From positions 124,001 through 188,000 of the forward strand of contig BCIN01000005.1 of the NCBI GenBank assembly GCA_039545335.1: a stretch of DNA of 64,000 bases. The letters are read 5' to 3'. Within the stretch, counting starts at the first letter, position 1, and each line of letters starts with the position of its first letter. Shown here piece after piece: positions 5,920 through 61,515 of this stretch. Made by a program: the position numbers and the translations under genes. Below the pieces are notes generated by a model that saw only the letters and a program-made list of their open reading frames with translations, did not search any database and was not told the DNA's origin. The stretch comes from Kondoa subrosea. Lineage: Eukaryota.

Positions 5920-6480
5920 GAGATTGTGGTCAACTCGGTCGACTGCATGACTTTTCGTGAATTGGCGCATAACAGATCGGATATCACTCGTTGATGCCGT
6001 ACTCTAATTCATGATCTATGATTCTCTGTCTGTCTATCTCTGTCAGTGCGCTACGATTTTTCGTGCCTTTTCAGTTCTTTCAAGAATTTATGGTGCGAAG
6101 TCATGCAAGCTATCATCATCATCCAATGCCTATGGATTCGCCTGTCCACTCGCACTATCAATGCCTCGTACATACTAGCGGCTGTCCGTTTTGGTGCCTT
6201 GCTCTAGTATGAGCTTCTCGAACCACTATTCCCTTGTTACGATTTCAGTACCACCTGTTTATCGCTCTGCCGTGAGCTCGGCTCTGTCCTTTTGGCTCAA
6301 AGAGGAAAGAGGAAAGGGCTAACTAGATTCCAATTGTGCCCATTGGGCTGAAAGTGCTTGATGACAAGTCTGCTCAAAACCCCTTCTTCAGCTCTTTTCT
6401 CGTCTCTTCTTCTTCTCATCTGTCGCCAACCTCTCTTCTGCTTTGATCTCCACTACATTTTTCAAATACCTCATCTTCAA

Positions 6481-8490
6481 CAATGTCTCATCTCAATGCA
6501 ATCCCTCGACCGATCGAGATTCCAGCAGTCCTTCGCGATCGTCTTCCAGGAATTTATTGCTGTTTACCCTCTCTCCTCGCTGAAACTCTCGTCGAAGAGA
6601 CTGTCAACATCGTATACTCTAGGCTCGATGCGAAAACCGGTCCAGTCGCCTTCGGTTACGCTTCATCTATTCTCCTCACCTTTGCTGAGTCGGAAAAGGC
6701 TTCAACTGATCAAGTACTAGCTTACAAGAATGTGAGGCACCTCTTAGAGCAAAGTTTTGGTCGATCAAGAACTTCAAGCTTGCAGTCCTCAACCTGACAA
6801 TTCTACCTTTCGATCAGGCCTTTCTTCCCTACGCATACAGATATACCGGTTGCACCGCCCCACTGCGGTGGGAGTCGCCTGGTACAGTAGCGGAGAAAGG
6901 AGTGCTCAGACAACCTGGAAGCTGCCTTCGATTACATTCTCTTGCCTATCGTTGCAATGAGACTGACGGAAGTGCGCTTCTGGTAATGGTTGTCAACAGC
7001 AACACTGGAAGGCAGAATTGGTGTGGTTGGGAATGAAAGCTTGAAGAGACTGATCAATCAACGCTGGGCTTTCTCTTCTTCTTTTGTATACTGTGCTGAC
7101 ATTTTGCTCGTTTCCAGATATCTCATTGGTCTGCGCTTCTCTTTCGAATCAGTAAAACTACACAGAAGGATCTGCTCTTTCCCCTCCGCGATTTCGCTCA
7201 AACTTTCTATCCTTCTGTAAGCTCTTACTACTTATGCCTATAAACTGAGTCTTAATGTCTTTTGGCTCTGGCAGAAACAAGAATTCAAGCCTAAGCCAAA
7301 AAAGAGCAAGTTCGTTCGATCACGGGATGATGATTTTGAAGCAGGTCCTTCTGTCAAGAGTTCGTTTTCATTTTGTTTCAGCTCAAACAACTCTAACTCG
7401 TTTCCTCTAGAACACAAACGATCCACTCGCAATTCTTTGCCGGAGATCGACGCGCAAGCTTCTGCACATTCCAGCCAACCTTCTCAGCCTTTTCGAGACG
7501 AAGCCGTTCCTTCCCCTACAGCTACCACTCTTGATCTCGGAGAAGTTGGCGACTTGATTGCTCAAGAAGTAGCTCGGGCACTCAAAGCAGCCGAAGATGA
7601 AGAAGCCGAAGATGAAGAAGTTCTCGCCCAACTTCTTCCCTCTCGAAACCCTGTCCAACCCAAGACTGTTGCTCTCGCTCCTCTCACTACTGCCACTGCA
7701 AGTCAGAACTCGACATTGGTGGTCAATGGAAGTGCAGTGGCCGAGTGTGTGATTGGATTGGCAGGTGATTTGGCGCGTTTGATGGGAAAGGGATTGAAGG
7801 AAACTGCTACTTTGGCTTTGAAACATCCGGTACAAGTTCTTGTGTGAGTCATGTTGCTTTATATTCTTCGTGCCTTCGCTGACTGAAGTTCTATAGATTG
7901 ACTGGCGGTTGTTTNTTATTTATGCAAATCAACGACATACTTCACTGCATCAAGTTGGATTTAGAAACTCTCATGTCCAGGTTAGTCTCTCTCTTCTCTG
8001 TCTTCAATCTCTAGAGCTTAAGATGTCTTTCTAGAAATTCTAAACTTCTCCACCTTGAAGCCTTCACAACATTGCTAGCTTCCGCTATCAACAAGGCTTT
8101 CGAAACGTTGTCTTATAGCTCAATCGTAAGCTTCTCTCCCCTATCTTTCACATGAATATGAGCTTATTCCCGCTTCTTGCATACAGATAAAAGCTTTCTG
8201 GTCGAAAGTTCAACCTGAAGACATACTTCAACCCGCAAAACTGATGGAAACGACTCAAAAGACATGTTATGGCCTTTCAATGCTCTACACAACTTTCTCT
8301 TTCGGACAACGCGTGATCGCAGCCCGAAATCCAGCAAACCGACTTCAAATTGCTCGCTGAAAGAGATGATTTTGCAGCTTCTTGGGTACTGGTGTATAGT
8401 GTGGGAAAGGTATTCTCTCTGTAATGAATTGACTGATGTTTCACTTGTACATACTACATCATGTTGATAGCATTGCTATTATTTTGCCTC
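6481..8490 (+). repeat. Left arm of a ~2-kb dispersed inverted repeat
   Basis: By-eye alignment to the reverse complement of ~58490-60501. The ORF track also gives paired near-identical ORFs (6990-7220 vs 59763-59993; 7437-7847 vs 59139-59546). The 3' boundary is approximate. Confidence 0.95.
6483..8360 (+). pseudogene. Orphan gene copy A (paralog of 58624-60499), probably disrupted
   Basis: MSHLNAIPRPIEIPAV... through ...NRLQIAR* aligns with the reverse complement of copy B. It has an in-frame TAA in EVRFW*WLSTATLEG and a 1-nt deletion relative to B near 6918 (CTGGAAGCT vs CTGGAAAGCT). An N lies at 7915. Confidence 0.55.
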
Positions 8491-12163: not shown

Positions 12164-14485
12164 ATGGATTCTGCAGCCGAAGTGCCAATCATACAGGCTG
12201 GCAAGATAGGATCAACACGATGTTATTGGGCCTTGCTGGATTCCGAGCTTCACTTTCGATACATGGAACCAACCTTAAGCGCTCACCTAGGACAGGTAAG
12301 CAATCATACTTGAATCTGTTCTCGGAGAAATGCCAAAGGAGAGATAAGTATGCGCAATTAATTTGCGATGCTTCCTTTTGGGCGATCGATCATAGATCTC
12401 GCATTACATTTCCTCGATCACTCCGCTCCTCAGATCTTCCCTTTATTAGTCTAATGTCATGTACTCATTGCGTGTTTGCTTGTTTGTCACAGCAAGCAAT
12501 CCCTTTACTTGAAACCGGTTTGTACGATTGGATTCATCCAGAAGAACTCCCCGCTTTCAAAAGAGACTATCAAAACTTCCTTGAAGGTCGTACACTGTTC
12601 GGTACAGTGACTAGGTGAGTCATACTTACAGTATAGACGCGGTTTTGGATGAACATTGACGCGTTTTTGTGACGAGGATAGATGTCGTTATAGCAAAGCG
12701 AATTACCTCAAGAAACATTTGGGCTACGAGGATGAAGTTGAAGCTATACTGGATGATCAGTGGTCCTTGGATGATCAGGTAAGTGTTTATGTCGGCTTGA
12801 GCGATACTGGTGCTAAATTCCGCGAGAAAGTACATGCATCTTCGGATTGTCTCAAGCTGGATTGGCGAGAAGACCATCCTTTGTTTCTTTCATGCTGATA
12901 CGGGTGAGCAGCTCCTCGAACAGTGAGAAGATTGACTGACTTAATGGAACAGATATCTCGGAACTCGATGGGGATGAAACAGCAAACAGTCATTGGTCCA
13001 ATTGGTGTGGACCTAAAGTGCAAGACGCTACGCAATATTTCACAGCTCAAGATGCCGAAAATCTCGAAAATGTACTCAATGCTATAGAAGGCGACCAGAG
13101 TATAGCAAACCCTCGTTCTCGATATACCTTTCAGATGATTGCTTTCACTCAACCTTCTACAATTCTCTTCTCCTATCCACACCCACCTAAAATAGAAGGT
13201 GAACAAACAGCAGAAGATTATGCTAGATTAGCTCGTGATGTTTGGGAAAAGCCAAGGGAAGCTAACGAAGATGCAAAGACGAATTGCACAAGGAGATACA
13301 GGGGAAAACATCCAGTGTCGGTTATCAAGCTTACCTATTCAAAGGGGAAACTGACGCCTTTTTGGTAGAACGCGAGCCGGTGCTCTGACTACTGTAGATT
13401 CAGTTCTCTTCCGATGGGGTCCTTTCTGCTTCGTCTGCTTCCAGGTAGCTGGTGTACTTGGCAACCGAAGCACTCTACCGGAAGCTGAGTTGATGCCTTA
13501 TCCGACGGGCTATCTCGACTCTCGTCGAAACAGCAAAGTCAAGCCAGCTCCTTTGGCGTTTGCTCAACCAGAACAAGGAAATGGCACTCTTCATCCAAAC
13601 TACAATAGACGATGGCCTGAGCAAGAGCATTACGAGAATGTCATTTCACCTACTGTTGCCAATGGAGCAGCTATACTTGGCTCTTTCACCAACTATAGAC
13701 CGGCACCTTATCCTGTGCACGCCAATTACACGCCTTATCCTCCACCTCATCAGTCACAAGCCTCTACCAGTCAAATAGACCCCACACGAAATCACGAATA
13801 TCATTACACAACTGTCGATCCCCAATTACAACCTGAAATTTATCCACGGCCAGTCTACCCTCAAGCTAATGGGCACTATCATTCTCTCACTTATCCACCT
13901 TACAACCCTTATTCGTCAGCGCCATATCAGGAAATGCCTCATGCGCAAATGCCGCCGCCTCCTCTTCATCAACAACATCACTCTCCTTTAGAACCATCGC
14001 CAGGTCCAACGGAAGATTCACCTCAGTCTACTTCTAGTCAGCTTCTTATGCCTGTTTCAGCTACTACTTCAGCTTCTTCCGCGCCTTCTGCTGGGCTACA
14101 ACCACCGCCTAAGAGAAGAAGAGAAAGAAGGGATGATGGAATAGCTAGAACGTGCTCAAGCTGCGGGACTGGCAATTCACCTGAATGGAGGAAAGGTCCG
14201 AATGGGACTAAATCTCTTTGTAATGCTTGTGGTGAGTCTTCTTTTTCTCTTCTACTTCGTCTGTTTGCTAATATGATGTACGCAGGTCTGAGATTCGCTC
14301 GATCTCAAGCGAAGAAACCGAAAGTCGGAGGGTCTGATGCAGAAGGACCACCAAAGAAGAAACAAAAGAAAGCTGATGCTGCTGTATCTAGAGGCTCTGC
14401 AGTCCTGGAGCAGCCTCAAACCTTTGGCTATGAAAATGGGTCGTATCCTGGTTATCCTTTGTATGAGAATATGGTCGGGCAATGA
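12164..14485 (+). CDS. GATA zinc-finger transcription factor with N-terminal PAS-like region
   Basis: C-X2-C-X18-C-X2-C finger [35 protein letters not shown]-like [10 protein letters not shown]; Pro/Gln/His-rich linker; start [27 protein letters not shown]. Confidence 0.85.
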
Positions 14486-14649: not shown

Positions 14650-14654
14650 AAAAA
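14650..14654 (-). terminator. Pol III oligo-T terminator of tRNA-Leu
   Basis: TTTTT on the minus strand, one base after the discriminator A73. Confidence 0.75.
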
Positions 14655-14655
14655 T

Positions 14656-14797
14656 TGAAAAGAGGGGGATTCGAACCCCCGCCCGAAGACCGCCGGTTTA
14701 CTAAAGAAACCTTAAGACGGCGCCTTAGACCACTCTGAGGAGGAAATGAGTTCGTGGACATGCAAAATATGACAAGCAACTTACCGGCCATCTTTCC
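14656..14797 (-). tRNA. tRNA-Leu(AAG) interrupted by two introns: 50-nt GT-AG at position 13/14 and 14-nt canonical at 37/38
   Basis: Removing 14735-14784 and 14696-14709 gives GGAAAGA TG GCCG AGTGGTCTA AGGC G CCGTC TTAAGGC GGCGG TCTTCGGGC GGGGG TTCGAAT CCCCC TCTTTTC A. All stems form, the anticodon is AAG (14711-14713), the B box is intact and the discriminator is A. Confidence 0.93.
14735..14784 (-). other. Spliceosomal-type (GT-AG) intron inside the tRNA-Leu D-arm
   Basis: Sequence GTAAGTTGCTTGTCATATTTTGCATGTCCACGAACTCATTTCCTCCTCAG: consensus GTAAGT donor, CTCAT branch-like motif, pyrimidine tract and CAG acceptor. Its 50-nt length matches the mRNA introns in this window. Confidence 0.85.
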
Positions 14798-15128: not shown

Positions 15129-16990
15129 TTACAATCTATAATGCCTGGTGTCCTTTTCTTCGTCTTGTCTTCTGCTTACTAGCTTCGCTGTGTCTTCTCC
15201 CCAAACCAAATCTGGGTCTTCATCTCCGACAAGGCATCGCTTTTCGTGCCTGTTCGTTTCTGCGTCAGATCAAGTAGAAAAGAGTACTCCCGAACACACT
15301 GATCTGCTTCATCTCTCTCAAAGAGGACGCAATTTGACCAAGTAAGAGGCAGATCCTTCTTCCATCGAGCCAGTGCAGGTTTAGTCGGTACTTTGTACTC
15401 GGGTGATACGATAGATCGACCCTACACTGGAAATCAGTCATGTGTGAAACATCATTTGTCTGCTTACTCGATGCAGTTCGTCGACCAGATACTCTATATC
15501 TTGCTCGCTCAAGGGTATTTTCCTACTCGAGATTAGACCACGTCTAATGATACGGCTCAGACTCACTGCGTTTGATGTAGTCTCATCTCCATTGCCGACA
15601 ATGCATTATATACCGATCTATAGACCTTCGGTCGATGTCTGGCTATCTCGTTCAGCTCGTATCGAGAGCTGTAGAGGGTCACTTACTTGATGGCTAATGG
15701 TTCCATCGTCAATCCCCCCAAATCACTAACGATATAAGCTGCTATCGCTTGCCCAAACATGCCTGCTTAATGAGCTAACATTGCACTTCTGTTCAGAAAG
15801 TTGATTTACCTGGCAATGGTCCCAGACAAGGCAAAATTCTGACTCTAAACTGGTCCAGAGCACTCAGTTCCTCGACTTTGCCTTTCTGAAACTCCTCTTC
15901 ATCCAGCGGAAGCAATCGAACATTCTCTGCCGTTCTTTCCGTAGAGTAAACGATCGGAATACCCGAAGCCACAGAACTCGATAGCTTTAATCGACGACGA
16001 ACGGCACGTGCCAAGGGGTCTTCAAAAGTATTCGATAAATCGCAAATTTGAATTCTCGAAGGATCGCATTTCGATGCTGCTCCCATCGCTGAAAAGACCT
16101 AGGAAGTGTCGTCAGTAGCAGAAAGTATTCGAAGCGAAGGAAAGCGCACTTTAAGGTTGTTCTGTTTGCAGTATTGTAATAGTTGAACCTAAAAAGTACC
16201 GATTAAGAAATGCGGCTATGATGTATACCAAGATACGAACTTTAGAGGCGATGTTGTCTATGCAGTCAATGACCCAATCCGGATCACCACTCAGTAATTC
16301 TGGCGCGTCATCAAGCGAAAAGAGTTCCGTTCGTGCGTCGACTTTGACCCAAGGAGCTACTGACTTGAAGAAGCGTTTCGAGCAGACGACTTTAGATGTT
16401 CCGACATCCGAAAGAGTAGCGTGGGCATGTCTCTACCATTCTCCTCAGCATAGTGCAGGGCCGAGACGAAAAGCGCTGACATTGAGTGATGATAAAGAGA
16501 CTTGATCAAAGTCTATCAATCTGATCCGTCCTATACCACTCCGACAAAGCATCGTAGCGCTGTGAGTAAAGCGAACCACCCAATCAGAACCAACCTGATA
16601 GGCGATAAGCCATGCTCACCATGCACTTCCAACTCCTCCGAGCCCAACGACTACCACAAACTTATTTCTCAAGTTCATGCATTGCTCGTCGCCCAGGAAA
16701 GCGATGTTTCTAGCCAAGAACTCTCTGATGAGGGTATCATCAAACACATCTTCCCCTTCGTTTTCTTCTTCGTCCAGATCGAAAGGCAATCCCAGCGAAT
16801 TCAGAGAATCGTCTTTTGATTGCGAGTAGCGAATATCGTCCCTCAATTGCTTGCGTTTCCGACCATGTCGATAGTCTTGAGCTGAGAAGACGAGAAAAGC
16901 GGTTATTGCTGATGAGAGAGCAGCGGTGAAGATTAATTTCTTGGATGGGATAGAAGCTAAAGAGAGCGAAGAGAAATAGGAAGAAGACAT
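15129..16990 (-). CDS. tRNA threonylcarbamoyladenosine dehydratase (Tcd1/Tcd2, ThiF/E1-like)
   Basis: N-terminal TM anchor; LIREFLARNIAFLG, VVVVGLGGVGS, RLIDFDQVSLSSLN|RHAHAT, DWVIDCIDNI, MGAASKCDPSRIQICDLSNTFEDPLARAVRRRL, IVYSTE, FRVRILPCLGPLP. Confidence 0.9.
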
Positions 16991-17314
16991 GTTACAGATC
17001 TCGAGCGAAGTCGAACGCGCAGGTAGACCAATCTGATCAGTCTGCTAGAGCGCAAGCAGGAAAGCAGAGATTCGATTTCAGGCCACAGCGATAGAGCGCG
17101 CTGAACACTTGAGATACAGGCAGATGAAGACAGAGAACGGGGAAGAACAATAAAATGCAAAAATTCAAAATGCTGCCCTTGTCTGCAGAGAACCATCTGC
17201 TACCTGTGTGAGTATATCACGGCGACACACATACCTACCTAGATCTAGAGACTTGGAGTATTCCCTAGACGCTGCTGGAAATATCCGCCTGCCTAGAGCC
17301 ACTTTTCGACAAAG

Positions 17315-25516: not shown

Positions 25517-28500
25517 ATGAAGGGCCGTAATCGCAACAGGCCACAAGGGCAACATAAGGCAGTGCCTATATCGATACAAAGGAAGCCGAGCAAACTATCG
25601 CGAATCTTCTTCAAATGTGCGCCCAAGTGTTGGATATACTAGGCTTTTCGCTCATATAAACTTTGCAGTGACTGACTGGAGCTTGCTCTCCCTCTTCGAT
25701 GCTAGGAGAAGGCCGCCACTACCGAGAACAGTCCTCTTCGGTCTGCCTTTACCTCATCAAGCTTGGGCAGCGACAAAGAAGGGTAAGAAACAACTAGCAG
25801 ATGGTGCACCTGAAGATCAAGTGGATCGCAAGGTACACAAAACGGCAGATCCTGCTTGGCAATATCCGACGAATCAAGTTCGCTATACTTTCCATCTGTA
25901 ATCAAGCATCTCGCTCATCCTTGTCACAGGTCGTCACATCAAAATATAACCTACTCACTTTCCTACCCAAAAACATACTCGAACAATTCAGAAGAATCGC
26001 TAACGTTTTCTTCTTGAGTGCGCTTCCTTCCCTCTCTCTCTTGGCATGGTAGCTTGCTTACCATATGAGCGATAATAGTTCTGGTCATTCTTCAATTCTT
26101 CCCCAGGTTCTCAAACGTTTCACCTGCGCTAGCTGCTTTACCGCTTTTGGTTGTTTTGGGCATTACTGCTTTGAAAGATGCATATGAAGATCTCAAGCGT
26201 CATCAAAGCGATCGCGCAACTAACAATCAACCGGTCAGTATCTTCGCACCATTTCTGGTCAATTGTTCTGACATTGCGTACAGGTCCGAGTTCTGCAATC
26301 AGAGCGATTCCATAATCCGTGCGTTGAACAATTGCCAGCTGTGGTATGATGCTTAAGCATTCTTGACACGTACAGCAATATCACTGACGCCAAAGACGGC
26401 ATTATCTCACTGAAGACATTCGGTCTCGGCTGGCTAATCACAGGCAATCGAGCTTCATCCAAATCAAAGAAAGAGAACGCAGCACTAGAAGCTGGTCAAG
26501 GTCCTTTCCCATCTGGCAACCGAAATTGGTGGGGATCAAAAAGAAGGAAACGCATCTCAGGCGTACCTAAATCTATTCCAGGCGGTGGTGATTTAGCCTC
26601 AGCGAAAGCAGAAGCTGGTATACCTGTCAAAGGTCGAACCAATGCTCATGATGCTGGTGAAGAAGAAGACTACGATGATGCTGCCCATGAAGCATATGGA
26701 AATGGTCAAGCTGGTGCGAGATGGTTCAAAACGACTTGGGAGAATTTGAGAACGGGAGATTTCGTCAAACTTATCAACAACGAAGCTGTTCCTGCTGATA
26801 TTATCATTTGTGCTACTTCAGAAGAAGAAGATGTTGCCTATGTCGAAACCAAAAATTTGGACGGTGAAACAAACCTGAAGTCGAGACATGCTGTACCGGA
26901 ACTTAATCACCTCAGAACAGCGAATCATTGTGCCGACGCTCGATTTTCTGTCAACGCGGATGCTCCTTCAGTCGATATGTTCAAGTACAATGCAGCTGTA
27001 CATCTTGCAGATGGTCGATTAGCTAAAGATGGCATTAAGCCGCTTGTCGCTCCTGTTTCTCTCAACACTGTCTTACTTCGAGGTACAATCCTACGAAACA
27101 CCGAATGGGTCATTGGTGTTGTAATGGCTACCGGTGTTGATACCAAGATCGTGCTCAATTCTGGCGGAACTCCAAGTAAACGAAGCAAAGTCGAAAGACA
27201 GATGAATCCTCAAGTCTTCCTCAATTTGGGTATTCTGGCTCTGATGTGCATCATGTGCGCTGTTGGCGATTCTATTCTTGAACAACGCTATTATGTTGAT
27301 GGTGCACCTTGGATGGCTTTTGCGGATCGATCAGACGATAATCCGCAAATCAATGGTCTCATTTCTTTCGCCAACGCAATGATTACTTTCCAGAATATCG
27401 TTCCCATTTCGCTTTATATTTCTATCGAATTCGTCAGATTGGCTCAAGCCTTCTTCATTTGGGCGGATGACGAGATTTATTACGAGGTCAATAAGCGTCG
27501 GACAGCCGCGAAGAGTTGGAATCTGTCGGATGATCTTGGTCAAATCGAATACATCTTTTCAGACAAAACTGGAACATTGACTCAAAACGTCATGCAATTT
27601 CGACGGTGTACCATCGCTGGCAAAATCTACAAAGGTGACAACATTATGCCCGAAAACGTCCTGCTTGGTGATACGGAACGCGTCACTTCCTCTGAATCCG
27701 GAGGGTCATCGGAAGATACCCGTGTCAACCCATCTGAGAAGGCGAATTCGCTCACTGCATTGCAAAGCAAGGATAAACTTCACAAAGAACAGCATCATAA
27801 GACGAAACAGCCGATGGAAATTGCACCTTTCCACGATGCTGCCTTACTGGAAGATTTGGCTAAAACCGGTTCGCATCAAGCTAAACTCATCGATGGCTTC
27901 TTCACCAATCTGGCTCTTTGCCACACCGTTCTAGCACAAGAAGACGAAGATGGCGTTATTCAGTATAAAGCTCAATCACCTGACGAAGCTGCTTTGGTAC
28001 AAGCTGCTGCAGATGTTGGCTATATGTTCATCGGTCGAGATAAGAATATCCTCAAGATTCAGACTCCTGCAAGCTCAGACCCTGTAGAGTATGAATTGCT
28101 CAACATTGTCGAATTCTCGAGTGCAAGAAAACGTATGAGTGTCGTCGTTCGGAAGGTTGTTGGACACGATAACAAGGTTCTCCTATTAATGAAGGGCGCT
28201 GACAATGTCATCTTTGAACGTCTTGCTCCTGGTCAAGATGCTGAGAAGGCTGAAACTGATAAACGCCTCGACGAATTTGCCAATGAAGGTCTTCGAACAC
28301 TCACTCTTTCCTACCGTATCATTGATGAGGAAGATTACGTTGATTGGGAGCGTCGATATACTCAAGCATCGGTCGCCATTGATGAGCGCGAAGAGAAAAT
28401 GGAAGCTGTTGCGGATACCATTGAACGAGAAGCTACTCTCCTTGGTGCCACTGCTATCGAAGACAAGTTGCAAGACGGCGTACCCGAAACGTTGACTGAT

Positions 28501-31080
28501 CTGAAGCGAGCTGGCATTAAAGTATGGGTCTGCACAGGTGACAAATTGGAGACCGCTGTTGGTACGTGTTATATATGGCTGCTTTTGAGATCTTCGCTTA
28601 TGCATTCTTTAGCCATTGGCCTCAGTTCCAACCTTCTCGCACAAGATATGAACCTCATCATCGTTCGGGGCGGTGAATATGGCGAAAAGAACAGCGCTTA
28701 CTCTCAAATGAAGCGAGCAATCACCGACTTCTTCAATGAAGGCGCCGATATTGTTGACCAGCTCGAAGATCTGCATCGGGATATCATTGGTTATAGTGAA
28801 AAATCAGACCGACCTGGTTTGCCTCCTCGCCAATCCACCGGAGCTATGTCTGGCATGTCTGAGATTGTCGGAGACGATAATGGACAACGACCTGGTGGCT
28901 TTGGTCTGGTCATTGAAGGCACAGCCCTAAAACATGCATTTGCTGAACCACAAACCAAAGAATTGTTACTCGAACTCGCAACTCGCTGCAAGGTCGTTGT
29001 ATGCTGTCGAACATCACCCTTGCAGAAAGCGCTTGTAGTCAAGCTTGTCCGAGAAGGACTTGGCGCGATGTGTTTAGCTATCGGTGATGGTGCAAACGAT
29101 GTGTCTATGATCCAAGCTGCAGATGTTGGTGTTGGTGTTGCCGGTGAAGAGGGACTTCAAGCTGTCAACTCGTCAGACTATGCCATTGGTCAATTCCGCT
29201 TCTTGCAAAAGTTGTTGCTAGTGCACGGTCATTGGTCTTATATGCGAAACTCGAGCATGATGTGAGCACTCATACAGTAAGGCTCGAGGATCAGCTGACA
29301 TGTGCCATAGCTGCAATTTCTTCTACAAGGAAATCATCGGCATTGGCATACTCTTCTTTTTCCAATTCTACTGTGCTTTCTCTACAACCACTGTCTACGA
29401 ATATACTGTATGTATTCCACTTTTCACACTGTTTCTCTCAGTCTGACCGCTGGAGAACAGTATATTCTCTTCTGGAACGTCTTCTGGACGCTTCTGCCAG
29501 TGCTAGCTATCGGTATTTTCGATCGCAACATCAACTACCACGTTTTGGTTCAAGTCCCTGAGCTGTATCATTACGGGCGAGAAGGGGCTTTGTTTGGTTT
29601 GAAACGCTTCAGCTACTATATGATCGATGGCGTTTATCAAGTGAGCACGTTTATGCGCAGTATCTTTTCCTACTAATCTGTTGCCTAGTCTGCGATATGC
29701 TTCTTCTTCGTGCTCTACGCTTATCAGACAACATCGACGCGATCCGATGGTTATGATCCAGCGCTTTACGAAATGTCGACGTTGATGGCTTTAGCTGCTG
29801 TCTTTGCGGCCAATTTGTACAACGGTTTCAAGTAAGCTCTTTTACCTTGTGCTCTGACGCCGGCTCATCTTTCTTTCCTAGCACTCATGCCTGGACTATC
29901 TTCCTTTGGGTGTCAATTGCTGTCGGACCCGTCCTTATCATGGTCTACACTGCCATCTACGACTCAATCAGTCCTACTAGTGTATGTCCTGCTTGCTACC
30001 TTTTTGACATTACTGATGACTCTCGTAATTGCAGACCTGGTCAACAGTCTACGGAAACAACGTAAGTCAACCATCACTGGTATATGGTAAACATCTGTCT
30101 AATCTTCCGGATAGCACTATCTCTTCACCTCTGCAATCTTCTGGTTCGGCTTCCTATTCACCTTGATAGTTGCTTTAGCTCCTCGATACCTTGTTCGATA
30201 CTACAAAGAGCTTTACAGACCGTCAGATGTCGATATCTTGAAATGGGTCGGAAAGAAAGATCCTGATCAGTATGTTCCTTCGTACAACTTTGAGAGACCG
30301 TTCTCATGCTTATGCGCAGCGATTTCTACCATGATCCATACATTCCAGGTGGAGCGGCAGCTCTAGCAACAAGACAGCGGACAAGAGAGCAAGGTCTAGG
30401 TGAAAGTCAGCTTGGACGACCTTCCTTGCAGCGAGTGCGAACAGACATGTCTGGTCTTGCACCAATTGCTAGTAGAGGCTTTGCGTTTGATCAAGAGGAT
30501 CGAATGGGAGAGACGGTCGTAGGACGCAATCTGCGGACGTATACTTCAAGTCAGTTTTGAACTCGGCGATCTTCGTGGCATAGCTGAAATTAGCTCAGGT
30601 CTGCATGAGCGAACTTCAGAATCAGGTAACAGACCGCGGAGTGGCTCCATGAGAAAACTAGCTATTGCGTTAGGAGCAAGCAAGTATGGCTCAGCCTCAT
30701 CTCCCGATAAGAAGTCAAAAGAAGGCACCGACCTGCGAAAGAAGAGTATTCTTTCGCTAGGTCGGAATCGAGCCTCGAGCCGCGCAGATGCAACTCAACC
30801 TCCATCTAATCCATCTAGTCCAAGTCGTCAGCAGCGGCCGGTCACTCCCTCTTCACGACCTATAACTCCAACTCCCGAAATGCGATCAGTCACGCCTACC
30901 TCTGCGAACAGCAGCTCTCCTCCTCCTTCTTCTCTTCGACCAACTTCGCCAGATGACACCTTCACAACACCTTTATCGAGTCAAGCAGTATCATCTCCTC
31001 CTGCTCAGAACTCAACACCAACCGATTTACCACCATCGATACCTAACCCATCTTCTTCAGATCAGCCGCCTGCATATTAG
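25517..31080 (+). CDS. P4-type ATPase phospholipid flippase (Dnf1/Dnf2-like)
   Basis: TSKYNLLTFLPKNILEQFRRIAN, ETKNLDGETNLK, FQNIVPISLYISIE, IFSDKTGTLTQN (catalytic Asp), SPDEAALV, TGDKLETA, AIGDGANDVSMIQ, LLLVHGHWSY. Confidence 0.96.
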
Positions 31081-43155: not shown

Positions 43156-46100
43156 ATGTTCTCGCGGACAAAGAGAAATCAGATCTCTGAGCCTGTGCCA
43201 GTGCCGTATGATCAAAGACCAGCAGCTACGCCTCCAATACCTGTTGCCTCACATGGCTTCGACTTTACAACGCCAAAAGCCAGTCGAACAAGTCAAGATC
43301 AACCTATTGAGCCCTCTGCAAATCCCTTGGCTCCTCAGCGATCTATACGCTCAGTCAGGTCTGTGCATGATACACGAGAACGTAGGCAACGAGATGCGGC
43401 TTCATCAGAGTACAGCAATGGACCTGTAGATCAGCGAAGTTATACACCAAGCTCACGCACAAGTAACGCAAGTGATACTTCGAGCTCTTACTATCAAGGC
43501 AACCCAGTCTCTACAAATTCTCTGGAAAGTCAACGGGATCCTAATGGCACAGTATCCTCTAGAACCACAAATCACTCAATGAGCAGTTCAACCAGTTCTT
43601 ATGCACCTTCAATACGATCTGTAGCATCCAGCGCAGCCAATTCTTCTTCTTACTCTATTCATTCGACAGCTACTGGTCAAACTACACCTCAACCAGCATC
43701 AACACCTCAAATGGGTCATCCACCACCTCCTCGTCAACGACCTAGCAATACTCCTTCGCATGGATTGCAAAACAGATCATCTAGATCAAGTCTCATCATC
43801 CCAAACTCACCTGTTCCTTCTATCCCAGCTGGTTTTGATTACCCTAGACCAGACTCACCTACCGAAATAGAATTGCAATTTGCCGAATTAGTGAATAGAA
43901 CAATGCAAGGAACAGCTAAAGATGAAATGCTTCAATGGTCTTTGGAAAGGAAATGGAACCTAGTTTTAGCCGATAAACAAAATGATGCTCTTAGTGCCAA
44001 AAAGGGAAAGAAAGTACTAGGTCACGCTCCAAATACATCTTCAAGGCATTCGAAATTAGGAGGAGGGGGAGGAGGAGGAGAGCAGGATAGTTTACTGTCT
44101 ACTTTGGTTGATAAAGCAAAAGGCAAAGGTAAAGCTAGACCAGACGGACCAGACGCTTATTTGGGAAGCTTCTTTGATAATACGGTCGATGCTGCAAAAG
44201 TTGCTGGTCTGGGTGTAGCATTGAGATCTTATGATGTCAGGTGAATTTCTTCGATCTTGGTAAGCATGCAGGTCATCGCTAACATGAGACACATGAAAGT
44301 TGGCTCAAGGCGTTCTTGAAGCTACGTGGTCAAGCTGTGTTGGCGGATGCTCTGCACAAAATCAACAAACCTCAGCAATGGAAAGAGACTGACCTGTCTA
44401 TAGAGCACGAATTGCTCAAATGCTTGAAAACGATTCTGAACAGTAGAGTGTGTCAGAATCGTTTAATCTACAGCTGTCGTGCTGATTATATTCTCAGGCT
44501 GGTACCGAAGATGCTATTCAACACTCATCTATCGTCACTAGCGTGGTCATGTCACTCACTTCTCCTCACATACCCACTCGCAAAACAGTTCTCGATCTAC
44601 TCACGTTCTTAGCCTACTTTGAAAACGGTGCAAAAGGGCACCCTTTGGTCTTACAAGGTCTCGATATGCTTATGAAAGTACGGAGTGAACAAAGTAGATT
44701 CGATGCTTGGTTTGCGACTTTTGAAGCAACCATCGATGGAAGAGGTCGAATGGGCAGTCTTGTTGGAGCAAGCGAAGAGATTCGAAGTCTTCGCGGCAAG
44801 GAAATCAAAGCTGCAATGCTAGCTGCTGCTGGGAATGGACAGATTGATAGCGTTTTGAGTGAATATGCTGTACGTTGACTTGGCCCTTCAGTTCTCTATT
44901 TCGCTGATGAAAACACTTCAGCTATCGAATATCCTTCTTATCAACGGTCTTCTGCAACATGTCGATGATCTGGACGTGAGAATACACTTACGAAATCAAA
45001 TGGAGGCTTCTGGTCTACATCGTATCCTTGAGAAACTACGAGCTTTTGGTCATCCCGTGCTCGATTCCAACTTGAAGAATTATGATGATCAAGCTGCCTT
45101 TGATATGGCTGAGCTGAAAGAGAACTTCGCACAAGATGTTTTGGAAGACCTCGGCGATCCATATGATGTGCTGAGAGCTATTCTCTCATCTGTCGAAGGC
45201 ACAAGAGCGCAAGACTTCCTTATCTCGACCCTGAAACATCTTCTGCTCATCCGTCAAGAAGGAGATCAGCGAGTGCGATACTTTCAGCTAATAGATCAGC
45301 TCGTGACTAGTATTGTTCTTGATCGAAAGACATTAGAGAACGACTTCTCCCAAGTATTGGGTGCAAGTGTCGCGGATATTGCGTCTCGCTTTGCCGATCA
45401 AGAGAGACTGCAGCAAGCACTTGAAGAACTGTCAACTGTCAAGACACAAGCACAGAGGCTGCGAAATCAGAAAGAAGATCTCGAAGAAGCGATGGCTGCC
45501 AATCAAGGTGGAAATGTTATTCAGCTGAAGACCCAATTGAGCAGAACCGAGCAAGATCTAGAGGTCTCAAGAAAAACATCCTCTGCTTTGGAAGATAGAT
45601 TGACCAGTATAGAGAAAATGTTCAAGGATAAAGAAGCCCTGCAAGAGATGCAAATTCAAGAATTGTTTGCAATGCTAAAAGAAGCGCGTATGCTGGAAAG
45701 CGTCGATGTGGATGGCACCAATATGCTTGATAGAAGAGAACTGCTTACTCTGATGGAGAAGAAAATGGAACGTACTCGTGCTTTCTATGCTCTGGAAGGA
45801 AAATCGATAGAAGCTGAAGCTGAGCGGAAAGCTAAGTCTTCGAGTGGCAGCCAGGCGAGCAATGTCACTAGAAGAAGTTGTTTCGAGGATGCAGAAGATG
45901 AAGCTGTTCGGCACCATATCGAGAATCGTCTTGCACAAGAAGCAACTCAATTGGTAAGTCAATTTTATCGGTAGATTTCGTGCCAAGCTGATATCATACT
46001 AGTCACCATTTCGAGCTAAGCGCAATGGATCCCCTCAAAGTACTCGAACTCTGCCTAAAGCCAACAGAGTCATCACACCAAATGCTCGTTTGCAGCTTAC

Positions 46101-48733
46101 CCAGCGGATACTCGATAGGGACGAAGATGAAGAGCTCACGCCTCAACCTAAACGATATCAGCAAATGGTCTCATTGGGCGTACAAACACAACCAACCTTC
46201 TCATCTCATCAGACGTCTCCTAACCGGAAGCCTTCTATGCCTATGGGTCTTCTCGATCAGATCAAAGCTAAGAACGCTTCGCGGCTACCTTCTCCACCTC
46301 TTGACGACGATGAAGATACACCAGGTAGGTCAAGCAATCGATCAGACAGTGGCTTCAGTCAATCGTCGGGCATAGAATCTCTTGGGCGACCTACCAAATC
46401 ACCGAAAAGAGAATCACGTCTACGTCAAGGTGCTTCCGAGTCGTCAACATCGAGTCGTGCCAGCTCGCCTATTCTTGCGCCTATAGTTGCTGGACCTCCT
46501 CCACCACCTCCTCCTCCTCCTTTCCTGCCAGGTCCTCAGCTTAACAATGTAGTTTCTGTACCTCCTCCGCCTCCGCCTCCTCCAATGATGAATTCGCTTG
46601 GTATACCAGGCGCTTCTCTAGCGCCCTCTCCAGTCATAACACCTACTGGCTCGCCTGGCCGTTCTCCCTCTCCTTCTTCTCCTGGCCGCATACCAGATTT
46701 CGCTGCTCAATTCGCTAAAGTTCAGCTCAAGAAAGTCGATCGATCAGGTTCCGATACAATGGTCATTCCCAAAGGAAGTATGATTGCGCCTGCAGGTAGC
46801 ACGATTCTCGCTCCTGCTCCTCCTATGCCGCCGCCGAATTTCCCAGGTCGACCGAATATGCCTGCGCCCCAGTTAGCCAATCTTCGCAAGAATGTGCCTG
46901 TCGCAGCTAGTCAAAGAACCAATCAAGTCTTCTGGGAAGCTATTTCCCAGAAGGATGTCTCTGTTACAGTTTGGGGTCAAGGCACTCTCGATGAAGATGC
47001 ACTGGCTCGTATGCTGAAAGCTGATGGTGTCTTTGATCAAATGGAAGATGACTTCAAAGCAAAACAAGCTGTCAAGATTGGAGCACCAAAGAAAGCAGCC
47101 AGCCTCATATCTGTTCTTGATGCACCTATGCGACAGCGCATAGAGATTTTGCTGCGCAAGCACACTGCCGCGACAGCTGTCACCGATGACGCTGATTTCA
47201 GAAAAAAGTTGGCTGAGCTTTCCTCTCAACTACTGCGCTGCGATCGAGATCTATGCACAGAAGATTTCCTATCCGAATTGCGACTTGTTCTGCCGAATGC
47301 GACTGTTACAGGTCAGCTGAGTGTCTACAGACAAGCTACTAGAGAAGTTCTGGACACCCTACACAAGGCGGATCAGTTCTTGGTTGAACTGCTCAAAATC
47401 GATCGCTTGAATGCCCGAGTCGAGGGTTTACTTTACAAGACTCGCTTTTTCGATAACGCTACTCGAATTAGCGCCAATGCAACTCGAATCATTGATGCTT
47501 GCCAGTCTCTCAAGACAGCACCTCACTTTGCTGATTTGCTACAAATGGCCTTGACTTTGGGCAATTTCTTGAATGCTTCCGGACGAGGTGGAGCGTACGG
47601 ATTCAGAGTATCTAGCTTGAACAAGGTCAGTGCACACTTGACGTACGGTAATCAAGCTAAATGGTTCTATAGTTCGTTGACACGAAAAAAGCTGGCGGGA
47701 AGACATTGTTGCATACGCTTGAACAGATCGTCACTGCTAAGTTTCCAGAGGTTCAAGGGTTCGAGCAAGAAATTGCCGGGGCAGTGGATTGCTACAAATG
47801 TCAGTACAATTGTTGCCTCATCATGAAGTCATTGACGTCCAGCACAGTGAGCTTGGATGAAGTGCGCAAAGACTTTGGTGATATTAGAAAAGCATTCGCG
47901 TCCACATCCCAAGAGTTGGATGATAACTTCCAAGATCCAGACAAGCTGTCAAGCGATGATCATTACCCGAAAACCATGACTCGATTCTTACGCGAAGCAG
48001 GAGAAGAGATCAAGTCAATACAAGATAAGATCACGCTAGCTGTAGCTCTATTCGAAGAAGTGCTCAAACTGTATCAAGAGAACAGAGGAAGTCAAGGCAC
48101 CGTCGAGTTCTTTGGTATATTCAAGACTTTTATGGTCTCTTATCAGGTCGGTTTTTTTATTGTGACAGCTGTCAGAAGTTGCTGATGCGATAACTTCGAA
48201 ACTTGACAGAAAGTCAAAAAAGAGAATCTCGCGGCATCAGAAGAAGAGCGTGCGATCGCGAAGCGGAAAGAAGTAAGCTATTGCAATCATTTGCATACTT
48301 CGGCTAATGCTCTCCACAGGCCAACGAGGCTCGAAGAGAAGAGCAAGCAGAACTCCAGCGGCAGCGAGAAGCTTTGCAAGCCAGTGGCGATGCATCAGGT
48401 CTGGACCAAATACTCACTGCTCTACGAACATCGAAAGCTTTGGGCAACAAGCGGGACAGGAAAGCTCGCAAGAGGACTTCTTCCCTTACTACCGCGCCTC
48501 TGTCTGCATCGCTGGACGATGTAGGCGATGTTGCATCAGAACTGCTCAAGGAACTTGGGGTCGACGGTGATGAGATGTTCTCTCCTCCTCGAACACCTCA
48601 AGGATTCACATCAATAAGAAGAAGTCGAAGGCTGACCGGAAGCGATCAGGCCTCGTCAGAACCAAATACGCCTAGAACACCTGGAACAGCTGGAACAAAC
48701 GAAACACTAATAGAAGAAGAAGATGAGGATTAA
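43156..48733 (+). CDS. Diaphanous-related formin (Bni1/SepA-like)
   Basis: GBD/FH3 (LERKWNLV, HELLKCLKTILN, GRGRMGSLVGASEE, RIHLRNQMEASGL), coiled coil, FH1 polyproline runs, FH2 (QVFWEAI, LTLGNFLN..GAYGFRVSSLNK, EFFGIFKTF) and DAD-like LDQILTALR plus a basic stretch. Confidence 0.95.
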
Positions 48734-58489: not shown

Positions 58490-60501
58490 AGACAGAGGCA
58501 ACAGCATGGCTATTCATTTCAGCTACTATGTACAAATCATAAACCGTCGATCAGTTGATTACAAAGAGAATACCTTTTGCATATTATGAAACAGTAACAC
58601 AGCAAGCTACATAATCATCTCTTTCAGCGAGCAATTTGAAGTCGGTTTACTGGATTTCGAGCTGCAATCACTCGTTGTCCGAACGAGAAAGATGTGTAGA
58701 GCATTGAAAGGCAATAACATGTCTTTTGAGTCGTTTCCATGACTTTTGCAGGTTGAAGTATGTCTTTAGGTTGAACTTTCGACCAGAAAGCTTTGATCTG
58801 TATGCAAGAAGCAGGAATCAGCTCATTTCATGCACATATAAGATGGAGAAGCTTACAATTGAGCTATAAGACAAGCTTTCGAAAGCCTTGTTGACAGCGG
58901 AAGCTAGCAGTGTTGTGAACGCCTCTACATGGAGAAGTTCTAGGGTTTCCAAATTGACACATTTAGCTCACGAAAAGCTTGAAAACACAAAGAAGGACTA
59001 ACCCGGACATGAGGGTATCTAAATCCAACTTGATGCAGTGGAGTATACCGTCAATTTGAATGAACAGAAAGCACCCGCCAGTCAATCTATAGAGATTGCA
59101 ATCAGAAAACACAAATAGACAAAGTAAAGCAGCAAGTCTCACACAAGAACTTGTACCGGATGTTTCAAAGCCAAAGTAGCAGTTTCTTTCAGTCCCTTTC
59201 CAATCAAACGCGCCAAATCACCTGCCAATCCAGTTACACACTCGGCCACTGCACGTCCATTGACCACCAATGTCGAATTCTGACTTGAAGTTGCAGTAGT
59301 GAGAGGAGCGAGAGCAACAGTCTTGGGTTGAAGAGGGTTTCGAGAGGGAAGAAGTTGGTCGAGAACTGCTTCATCTTCATCTTCATCTTCAGCTACTTTG
59401 AGTGCCCGAGCTACTTCTTGAGCAATCAAGTCGCGAACTTGTGCGAGATCAGGAATGATAGTTGTAGGGGAAGGAACGGCTCCGTCTCGAGAAGGCTGAG
59501 AAGATTGGCTGGAATTCGCAGAAGCTTGCGCACCAATCTCCGGCAAAGGATCTCGAGTCGATCGTTTGTGTTCTAGAGGATACGAGTTAGAGTTGTTTGA
59601 GCTGAAACAAAATGAAAACGAACTCTTGACAGAAGGACCTGCTTCAGAATCATCATCCCGTGATCGAACGAACTTGCTCTTTTTTGGCTTAGGCTTGAAT
59701 TCTTGTTTCTGTCAGCGCCAAAAGACATTAAGATTCAGTTTATAGGCATAAGTAGCAAGAGCTTACAGAAGGATAGAAAGTTTGAGCGAAATCGCGGAGA
59801 GGAAAGAGTAGCTCCTTCTGTGTAGTTTTACTGATCCGAAAGAGAAGCGCAGACCAATGAGATATCTGGAAACGAGCAAAATGTCAGCACAGTATACAAA
59901 AGAAGAAGAGAAAGCCCAGCGTTGATCGATCAGTCTCTTCAAGCTTTCATTCCCAACCACACCAATTCTGCCTTCCAGTGTTGCTGTTGACAACCATTAC
60001 CAGAAGCGCACTTCCGTCAGTCTCATTGCAAAGATAGGCAAGAGAATGTAATCGAAGGCAGCTTTCCAGGTTGTCTGAGCACCTCTTTCTCCGCTACTGT
60101 ACCAGGCGACTCCCACCGCAGTGGGGCGGTGCAACCGGTATATCTGTATGCGTAGGGAAGAAAGGCCTGATCGAAAGGTAGAATTGTCAGGTTGGGAATG
60201 CAAGCTTGAAGTTCTTGATCGACCAAACTTTGCTCTAAGAGGTACCTCACATTTTTGTAAGCTAGTACTTGATCAGTTGAAGCGTTGTGCGACTCGGAAA
60301 AGTTGAGGAGAATAGTTGAAGCGTAGCCGAAAGCGACTGGACCAGTTTTCGCGTCGAGCGTAGTGTATACGATGTTGACTGTCTCTTCAACAAGAGTTTC
60401 AGCGAGGAGGGAGGGTAAAGAGCGGTAGATTCCGGGAAGAAGATCTTGATGGACTGCTGGAATCTCGATTGGTCGAGGGATTGCATTGAGATGAGACATT
60501 G
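58490..60501 (-). repeat. Right arm of the ~2-kb dispersed inverted repeat
   Basis: Reverse complement aligns to ~6481-8490. The boundary at ~58490 is approximate. Confidence 0.95.
58624..60499 (-). pseudogene. Orphan gene copy B (paralog of 6483-8360), possibly disrupted
   Basis: Starts MSHLNAIPRPIEIPAVHQDLLPG... ORF 59997-60203 and ORF 59763-59993 are in the same frame, separated by TAA-TGG. Ends ...NRLQIAR*. Confidence 0.5.
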
Positions 60502-61515
60502 GAAAGATGAGACTGTGACTGGTTGAAGGTGAGAAGCGATGCAGGAAGATGAGGTTCACTTACCTCGACAAAAGGGCGACTTCGACAAAAGGGCGAGTTG
60601 GCTGAAATAAGCAAAACAATCGAGATATATTGAAACATCGCAATTTCGATCGCAATGGCGTTCAACCTCATGATCATCAATAAACCACAAGCGAATTTAG
60701 AAGCGAAACAAATTGACAATCTCGATGCACATGTGTACTAGAAGTCCTGGCCTGACATTCTTTAGCCCATGGGGTGACATCAATGTTAATGGAAAGCCAG
60801 AATGGTCCGATTACAAAAAGACAAAAATATGCAAGACACGAAGCACATCATGCATATGCATCATGTGCCACTAGGGAAATATGGAAAGAGGGACACAAAG
60901 AGAGGAAGGAAGAGGAATCTAGAAACTATCCGCGTTTGCTTTCCTCCTATCGAGGGTATAGACAGCCATACTTCACTCTGAGCGGAGGATATAGCCGTTG
61001 AAGTTATCACACCCATTTAGAGCCCCTGCCTGGTATCTTCAGAATTCGAGAAATTGAAAAGGGTTACAATTTGAGTACTGTTTCTGATGGCATCACTCGC
61101 CCAATGCTGATGACCGAGCCTGCGCTTAATATAGATATAGACGCCATGAAAGACAATGTCTTGTTTAGCACGAGCGAAATCCTAAAGCTAGATCTTCAGA
61201 TATCGAATGTATTTTCCAAGCGCCTTGCCAAGGCATGGATACCACAAGACCTAGCACAGGTTGGAGATATCCATAGACTGATCTGTAAGATGCCCTCGTC
61301 AGCTAGCAAAGGCACTCACAAAGAAGAATGAGAAAAAGAAGTCAGCCAAATAGCAAGGCGATGATAAGCCTATGCCAGTTCAACGAGGCCAGAAAAGGAA
61401 TAAGAAGGGAATCCGATAAGGGGATTAAGTACTACTGGCCGACACGGTTAAGAGGCAAGTGATTTGAATATGAATACAGCATGTACATTGAGATGACTCT
61501 ATAGGACTTCCTGAT

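Follow-up and report, generated by a model that had tools for sequence, protein, structure and literature searches.

A leucine tRNA gene from a Pucciniomycotina-like basidiomycete with a candidate spliceosomal intron in the D-loop and an endonuclease-type intron at 37/38

A leucine tRNA gene with two interruptions

The window, by which we mean the whole 64-kb stretch of DNA analysed here, carries on its minus strand a tRNA-Leu(AAG) gene that is interrupted twice, by 50 nt at tRNA position 13/14 and by 14 nt at 37/38 (Table 1). That a gene for this tRNA lies here, split by a 50-nt GT-AG insert, had been proposed in an initial annotation of the DNA, and the sequence and ARAGORN both bear this out. 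When the 50 nt were excised by script, the program called a 78-nt tRNA-Leu(AAG) with a 14-nt intron at 37/38. The excised segment sits where the D-loop begins, between nucleotides G13 and A14, and the exact cut at its GT and AG borders restores the tRNA, as had also been claimed. The further claim, that the rest of the cloverleaf pairs fully, holds in part: every one of the 20 base pairs that make up the acceptor, D, anticodon, and T stems is of a standard kind, but only after the 14-nt intron (14709-14696) has been removed as well. Once both inserts are out, the conserved U8, A14, G18, G19, and U33, the G53-C61 pair, and the T loop are present.

Table 1. Parts of the tRNA-Leu(AAG) gene and their positions in the 64-kb window.
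Feature	Position	Strand	Basis or remark
tRNA exon 1 (positions 1-13: acceptor 5' strand, U8, G9, D-stem 5' strand, G13)	14785..14797	minus	sequence GGAAAGATGGCCG; ARAGORN
50-nt spliceosomal-type insert at tRNA position 13/14	14735..14784	minus	signals; intron statistics; no bulge-helix-bulge (BHB) motif
tRNA exon 2 (A14 to G37)	14710..14734	minus	begins AGTGGTCTAAGGCG; anticodon AAG at 14713-14711
Canonical endonuclease-type intron, 14 nt, at 37/38	14696..14709	minus	ARAGORN; exon-helix geometry
tRNA exon 3 (position 38 to discriminator A at 14656)	14656..14695	minus	9-nt variable region; T arm
T5 run, Pol III terminator-like	14650..14654	minus	sequence

Nuclear leucine tRNAs are class II tRNAs with a long variable arm, and their genes are served by a type 2 Pol III promoter. 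The B box of the gene in the window (GGTTCGAATCC, 14667-14677) is an exact match and the sole exact one in the 64 kb, where a search for exact B boxes returned no other tRNA-like locus. A T5 terminator had been noted initially and is present; it begins one base after the discriminator, a single extra A lying between the discriminator A (14656) and the T run (14654-14650). With the B box exact and the T5 run intact, the A box is split by the 50-nt insert into TGGCCG and AGTGG. The variable region is 9 nt long (TCTTCGGGC) and can form a stem of 1-2 bp closed by a TTCG loop, to be compared with 15 nt and a 4-bp stem in the second gene described below. Nine nucleotides are short for a leucine tRNA, and this shortness may be a sign of decay.

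Neither of the finders that we applied to the uncut window recognizes the gene, in keeping with the expectation of the initial annotation that standard finders would miss genes of this kind. ARAGORN reports 0 tRNA genes, with or without its intron option, and Rfam yields 0 matches at the gathering score. At a loose threshold (E up to 0.1), Rfam recovers only T-arm fragments of the tRNA, and at the same threshold it points to no other intron-bearing RNA gene in the window. One such match, to the family ‘Plastid-psbl-rps4 3'UTR RNA’ at 14656-14701 of the plus strand, was set aside as spurious; it scores 28 bits where the gathering score is 68, and it covers the T arm of the tRNA in antisense.

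Several protein-coding genes surround the locus. Upstream of the tRNA gene, and likewise on the minus strand, is a ThiF-family gene with at least 3 exons (15793-17044), which presumably resembles a tRNA threonylcarbamoyladenosine dehydratase gene. The gene on the opposite flank, which encodes a GATA zinc-finger protein (13355-14485, plus strand), is convergent with the tRNA gene, and its stop codon lies 170 nt from the tRNA 3' end. A gene for a P4-type phospholipid flippase (25668-30548, plus strand) has several introns of 45-61 nt, one of them with a CTCAT branch motif, and a formin gene (Drf_GBD, FH3, FH2) occupies 43156-47826. An inverted duplication of ~1.97 kb, with 90.4% identity between its copies, spans 6470-8432 and 58551-60511. 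Its left copy contains the only N of the window (7915), and three plus-strand open frames of that copy gave no match in Pfam.

The phylogenetic position of the window was judged from an ATPase exon. Among the 120 matches listed for this exon, the best identities, 61-64%, are to proteins of Microbotryomycetes and Mixia (Pucciniomycotina), as against 51-58% for other basidiomycetes, and among the same 120 matches the number of ascomycete sequences is 0. On this comparison the window comes from a Pucciniomycotina-like basidiomycete, one that has no close sequenced relative among the proteins of the searched collection.

The D-loop insert and the mRNA introns of the window

Read along the minus strand, the 50-nt insert opens with GTAAGT (14784-14779), continues through a T4 run (14767-14764) and a branch-like CTCAT (14750-14746), and closes with CAG (14737-14735). 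Its 3' end reads CTCATTTCCTCCTCAG, and the branch-like A at 14747 lies 12 nt before the end of the insert. These signals were compared with 23 other segments of the window, each of which connects open reading frames and has intron signals by loose criteria; we treat these segments as putative introns. The hexamer GTAAGT, which fits GTRNGT, is the most frequent 5' hexamer among them (4 of 23). Their main branch motif is CTGAT (9 of 23); CTCAT is a minor form (3 of 23), and others occur as well. The spacing of 12 nt between branch A and intron end, found in the insert, is also the commonest in the comparison set (5 of 23). Over all 24 segments, the insert included, the median length is 52 nt with an interquartile range of about 50-58 nt, next to the 50 nt of the insert. 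Introns of the P4-ATPase gene, whose borders were mapped with the help of homologous proteins, resemble the insert too. The initial statements that CTCAT recurs in mRNA introns of the window, and that donor, branch, CAG, and length are those of this genome's mRNA introns, are thus upheld by the same counts.

How often such a segment would be expected was estimated with strict criteria, namely a length of 40-70 nt, GTRNGT at the 5' end, CTNAY at 8-20 nt from the end, and YAG at the 3' end. The window contains 56 segments of this description, equivalent to 1.4e-5 per position and length, and Markov-1 shuffles give 3.5e-6. At these rates, an arbitrary insertion would look like an intron about once in 100,000 cases. 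The exact register of the insert carries one ambiguity: a cut placed one base further left yields an identical tRNA product. Of the two, only the GT..AG register satisfies the spliceosomal rule.

An introner, or another repeated element that generates introns, would be marked by many similar copies, a target-site duplication, and characteristic ends or structure. The insert has no stable fold (z = +0.5). Further copies of it are absent from the 64-kb window, where the next best matches are words of 8-14 nt with E >= 1.9, and its borders show no direct repeat. T5 runs are absent from this insert and from the D-loop insert of the second gene, an observation that is uninformative since only 2 of the 23 other putative introns contain one. 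A protein-coding reading was also considered and rejected. The insert does join two minus-strand open frames, of 54 and 160 codons; neither gave a Pfam match, and the 160-codon frame runs antisense over the 3' end of the GATA coding region, for which two reasons we take the joined frames to be a coincidence.

The insert in the tRNA-Leu(AAG) gene is real and not a product of chance, and by every sequence test applied here it is an intron of the mRNA type, lodged in a tRNA-Leu gene that is otherwise intact. The initial reading of it as such an intron is supported in part, by its signals, its length, the absence of a BHB motif, and the second locus; that reading had overlooked the second intron, the shortness of the variable arm, and the splitting of the A box.

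A second locus with the same architecture

Metagenomes were scanned with a split-tRNA pattern consisting of GGCCG, GT, a gap of 35-65 nt, AG, and AGYGGTYTAAGGCG, which covers position 13/14 only. Two loci, L001 and L002, were returned. The former lies in coding DNA of bacterial appearance in which no tRNA was called; we discarded it as a chance match. The latter lies on a 79-kb contig, of which 4 kb were examined, and reads GGACAGATGGCCG, followed by 51 nt of the form GTTCGT...TTCTAAC...CAACAG and then by AGTGGTCTAAGGCG, with T5 and T8 runs after the gene. Removal of the 51 nt leads ARAGORN to call a tRNA-Leu(CAG) with a 17-nt intron in the anticodon loop (37/38) and a full 15-nt variable arm. 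In the uncut sequence of L002 ARAGORN calls no tRNA, so the prediction that such genes escape standard finders is borne out at this locus as well.

Several features of L002 lie outside the demands of the pattern: the GTNNGT hexamer, a CTAAC branch motif at 10 nt from the end of the insert, the C before AG, and the tRNA itself. The same pattern applied to prokaryotic sequence gave 1 chance match in 596 billion bases, situated in an aminotransferase-like gene with no tRNA called, and 0 matches in viral contigs. The interior of the L002 insert is unrelated to that of the window insert, and the insertion point, 13/14, is the same. This agreement in position is partly a matter of design, since the scan covered 13/14 only. 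Comparison of the two tRNAs over their 20 stem pairs finds 13 pairs identical, 1 with a one-sided change, 6 with two-sided changes, and 0 broken. Neither blastn nor tblastx detects synteny between L002 and the window beyond matches of 17-36 nt inside the tRNA genes.

A neighbouring gene on the L002 contig (3224-4069, minus strand) encodes P0121, an orphan-like Zn2Cys6/KpeA-like protein of 548 aa for which Pfam gave no hit. At E up to 0.001 this protein has 398 relatives. The closest named ones, at 31-32% identity, come from Leotiomycetes, namely Zn2Cys6-type proteins of Golovinomyces and one protein of Hymenoscyphus, and its nearest clusters in the Atlas are mostly from Ascomycota, which we treat as a lead only. 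From these relatives, the source of L002 is probably an ascomycete. The split tRNA-Leu arrangement would then occur in two fungal phyla and in two isoacceptors, the phylum of L002 being the probable one just named.

A single real case among the metagenomes indicates that the arrangement is not widespread at 13/14, and it makes an ancient and widely kept intron at this position unlikely. Rare retention, or recurrent gain, at 13/14 fits better than such an ancient intron. Taken together, the two genes suggest that leucine tRNA genes have, at position 13/14, a retained or recurrent intron site.

Proposed maturation of the precursor and competing readings

On balance, we favour the reading that the locus is a working nuclear tRNA-Leu(AAG) gene with two introns of two kinds, one a U2-type GT-AG intron and the other an endonuclease-type intron at 37/38. 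Function of the gene appears likely by a modest measure, and with the same reserve we infer that the insert is spliced. The precursor would be transcribed most likely by RNA polymerase III, as the B box and the T5 terminator suggest. The spliceosome would take out the 50-nt D-loop intron as a lariat, much as it removes the mRNA-type intron from the U6 precursor of fission yeast, itself a Pol III product. The intron at 37/38 would fall to the tRNA splicing endonuclease and a ligase, and the ends would be trimmed by RNase P and RNase Z. The more general proposition, that leucine tRNA genes of some Basidiomycota and Ascomycota contain a spliceosomal intron at 13/14 next to an endonuclease intron at 37/38 and that their pre-tRNA is matured by both splicing systems, strikes us as evenly poised.

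Some properties of the gene sit uneasily with this scheme. The T4 run inside the insert counts against a working gene. Since the A box is split, a correct Pol III start upstream of the 13-nt exon 1 is not assured. An A-box-like half at the junction of the intron with exon 2 could start transcription inside the intron, and exon 1 would then be lost. One possible way round the split A box is a precursor made by Pol II.

The main alternative, less likely than a working gene but to be taken seriously, is a dead or redundant copy. An excised mRNA intron would have entered a tRNA-Leu precursor by reverse splicing or some other form of capture, and the product would then have been returned to the DNA of one of several tRNA-Leu(AAG) genes. 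Such a copy would be mis-transcribed or left unspliced without having yet decayed, while intact copies supply the tRNA. An internal Pol III promoter whose A box is divided, an unusually short variable region of 9 nt, and a first exon of only 13 nt are what a dead copy might present, and a lone further metagenome case at 13/14 is more easily reconciled with sporadic events than with an intron conserved from early on. Against a dead copy, no other decay is seen in either gene: the 20 of 20 stem pairs, the loop residues, the exact B box, the T5 run, and the three splice signals are intact. The recurrence of the same position in two phyla would moreover require that both copies be young, or that insertion be strongly site-specific.

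A working gene could also be reached by way of Pol II, a route that we regard as improbable. The tRNA would here be part of a capped non-coding precursor, or of the tail of a neighbouring mRNA, that is spliced and from which RNase P and RNase Z then free the tRNA. Spliceosomal splicing is normally coupled to Pol II, and the A box is split. A suitable neighbour exists in the ThiF-family gene, which is upstream on the same strand (17044-15793) and whose last recognisable exon ends ~400-1000 nt before the tRNA. Opposed to this route are the Pol III hallmarks of both genes: in each, a T5 run lies no more than one base from the discriminator, and the B box is an exact match or close to one. The minus-strand frames joined by the insert (54 and 160 codons), lacking a Pfam match and with the longer one antisense to the 3' end of the GATA coding region, likewise speak against this route.

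Excision of the D-loop insert by the tRNA endonuclease, as a non-canonical BHB intron of the kind found in archaea, Cyanidioschyzon, and nucleomorphs, is very improbable. BHB introns do occur at non-canonical tRNA positions, the D-arm included, and the initial annotation had named cleavage by the tRNA endonuclease through a BHB-like fold as an outcome that would count against a spliceosomal intron. We examined both genes for bulge-helix-bulge geometry at the insert borders and at shifts of -2 to +2. In neither D-loop insert did this test find the motif; the central helix reached at most 3 of 4 pairs, and never together with a paired exon helix. The introns at 37/38 of both genes, which served as a positive control, gave an exon helix of 4/4, the 14-nt intron of the window combining a 4/4 anticodon-stem helix with a 3/4 central helix. 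Minimum-energy folds contained no BHB motif either. With the fold absent by both approaches, endonuclease removal of the 50-nt insert was rejected, and under it the full set of spliceosomal signals would be an unexplained coincidence. The present gene does share with the BHB introns of archaea, Cyanidioschyzon merolae, and nucleomorphs a tRNA intron outside 37/38 and more than one intron per gene; it differs in that those introns are defined by the BHB fold and cut by the tRNA endonuclease, whereas here that fold is absent and GT, branch, and AG signals are present.

Chance resemblance or an assembly artefact, to which one might be inclined because sequence is all that was examined, is scarcely credible in view of a chance rate of about 1e-5 or less, the same architecture in an independent assembly from another organism (L002), and an insert that has no other copy in the window.

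Spliceosomal introns in non-coding RNA genes

No tRNA gene with a spliceosomal intron is reported in the literature that we searched, in agreement with the initial statement that none is established; the search covered subscription journals thinly, and an older report is possible. Recent accounts describe the three intron types as apparently wholly unrelated (PMC12530127, 2025) and tRNA splicing as a process that does not use the spliceosome (PMC10275265, 2023; PMC13149111, 2026). If the reading of a working gene with a spliceosomal intron is true, the spliceosome acts on a tRNA precursor and the rule that separates spliceosomal from tRNA introns is broken. A tRNA would then join the non-coding hosts of mRNA-type introns (U6, U1, U2, U5, U3, and rRNA), and the gene would be a second example from nature in which the spliceosome processes what is probably a Pol III transcript.

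There would be a practical consequence as well. The description of tRNAscan-SE 2.0 sets out a search for non-canonical introns for archaea only (PMC8450103). Since ARAGORN and Rfam miss the split genes and the non-canonical search of tRNAscan-SE 2.0 is confined to archaea, such genes would be absent from fungal annotations. They would be invisible to every standard tRNA finder, and fungal tRNA gene sets would be under-counted.

An mRNA-type intron in the U6 snRNA gene of Schizosaccharomyces pombe was reportedly described by Tani and Ohshima in 1989, and this intron is reported to contain a match to the B box (Frendewey et al., 1990). The snRNA genes of Rhodotorula hasegawae (U1, U2, U5, and U6) likewise reportedly carry mRNA-type introns (Takahashi et al., 1993, 1996; Tani and Ohshima, 1991). 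The tRNA gene of the window resembles the S. pombe U6 gene in encoding a short non-coding RNA, in bearing Pol III hallmarks, and in containing an intron with ordinary spliceosomal signals. The two differ in their hosts, a tRNA here and an snRNA of the spliceosome active site there. As a tRNA stands outside that active site, closeness to the catalytic centre cannot explain the insertion; a host that is abundant and yet outside the active site would, for this reason, offer a clean test of intron gain. They differ also in promoter structure, in that the intron splits the A box here whereas a B-box match lies within the U6 intron, and splicing of the tRNA intron is inferred. R. hasegawae offers the likeness of a fungal lineage with spliceosomal introns in several small non-coding RNA genes, for which reverse splicing has been proposed; its hosts are snRNAs, none of them a tRNA.

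Removal of the S. pombe U6 intron by the spliceosome is stated in a review, which also lists U2, U5, U1, and rRNA genes as further hosts of mRNA-type introns and considers reverse splicing their likely origin (PMC5855946). Spliceosomal introns are likewise described in fungal U3 snoRNA genes (PMC5832005) and in the rDNA of ascomycetes (Bhattacharya et al., 2000, as cited in PMC5855946 and PMC2586383). Like the tRNA genes reported here, U3 snoRNA and ascomycete rDNA genes combine normal spliceosomal signals with a location inside structured non-coding RNA genes and a small number of recurrent positions. They belong to other host classes, and the U3 introns are widespread and conserved across fungi, in contrast to the two tRNA cases found here.
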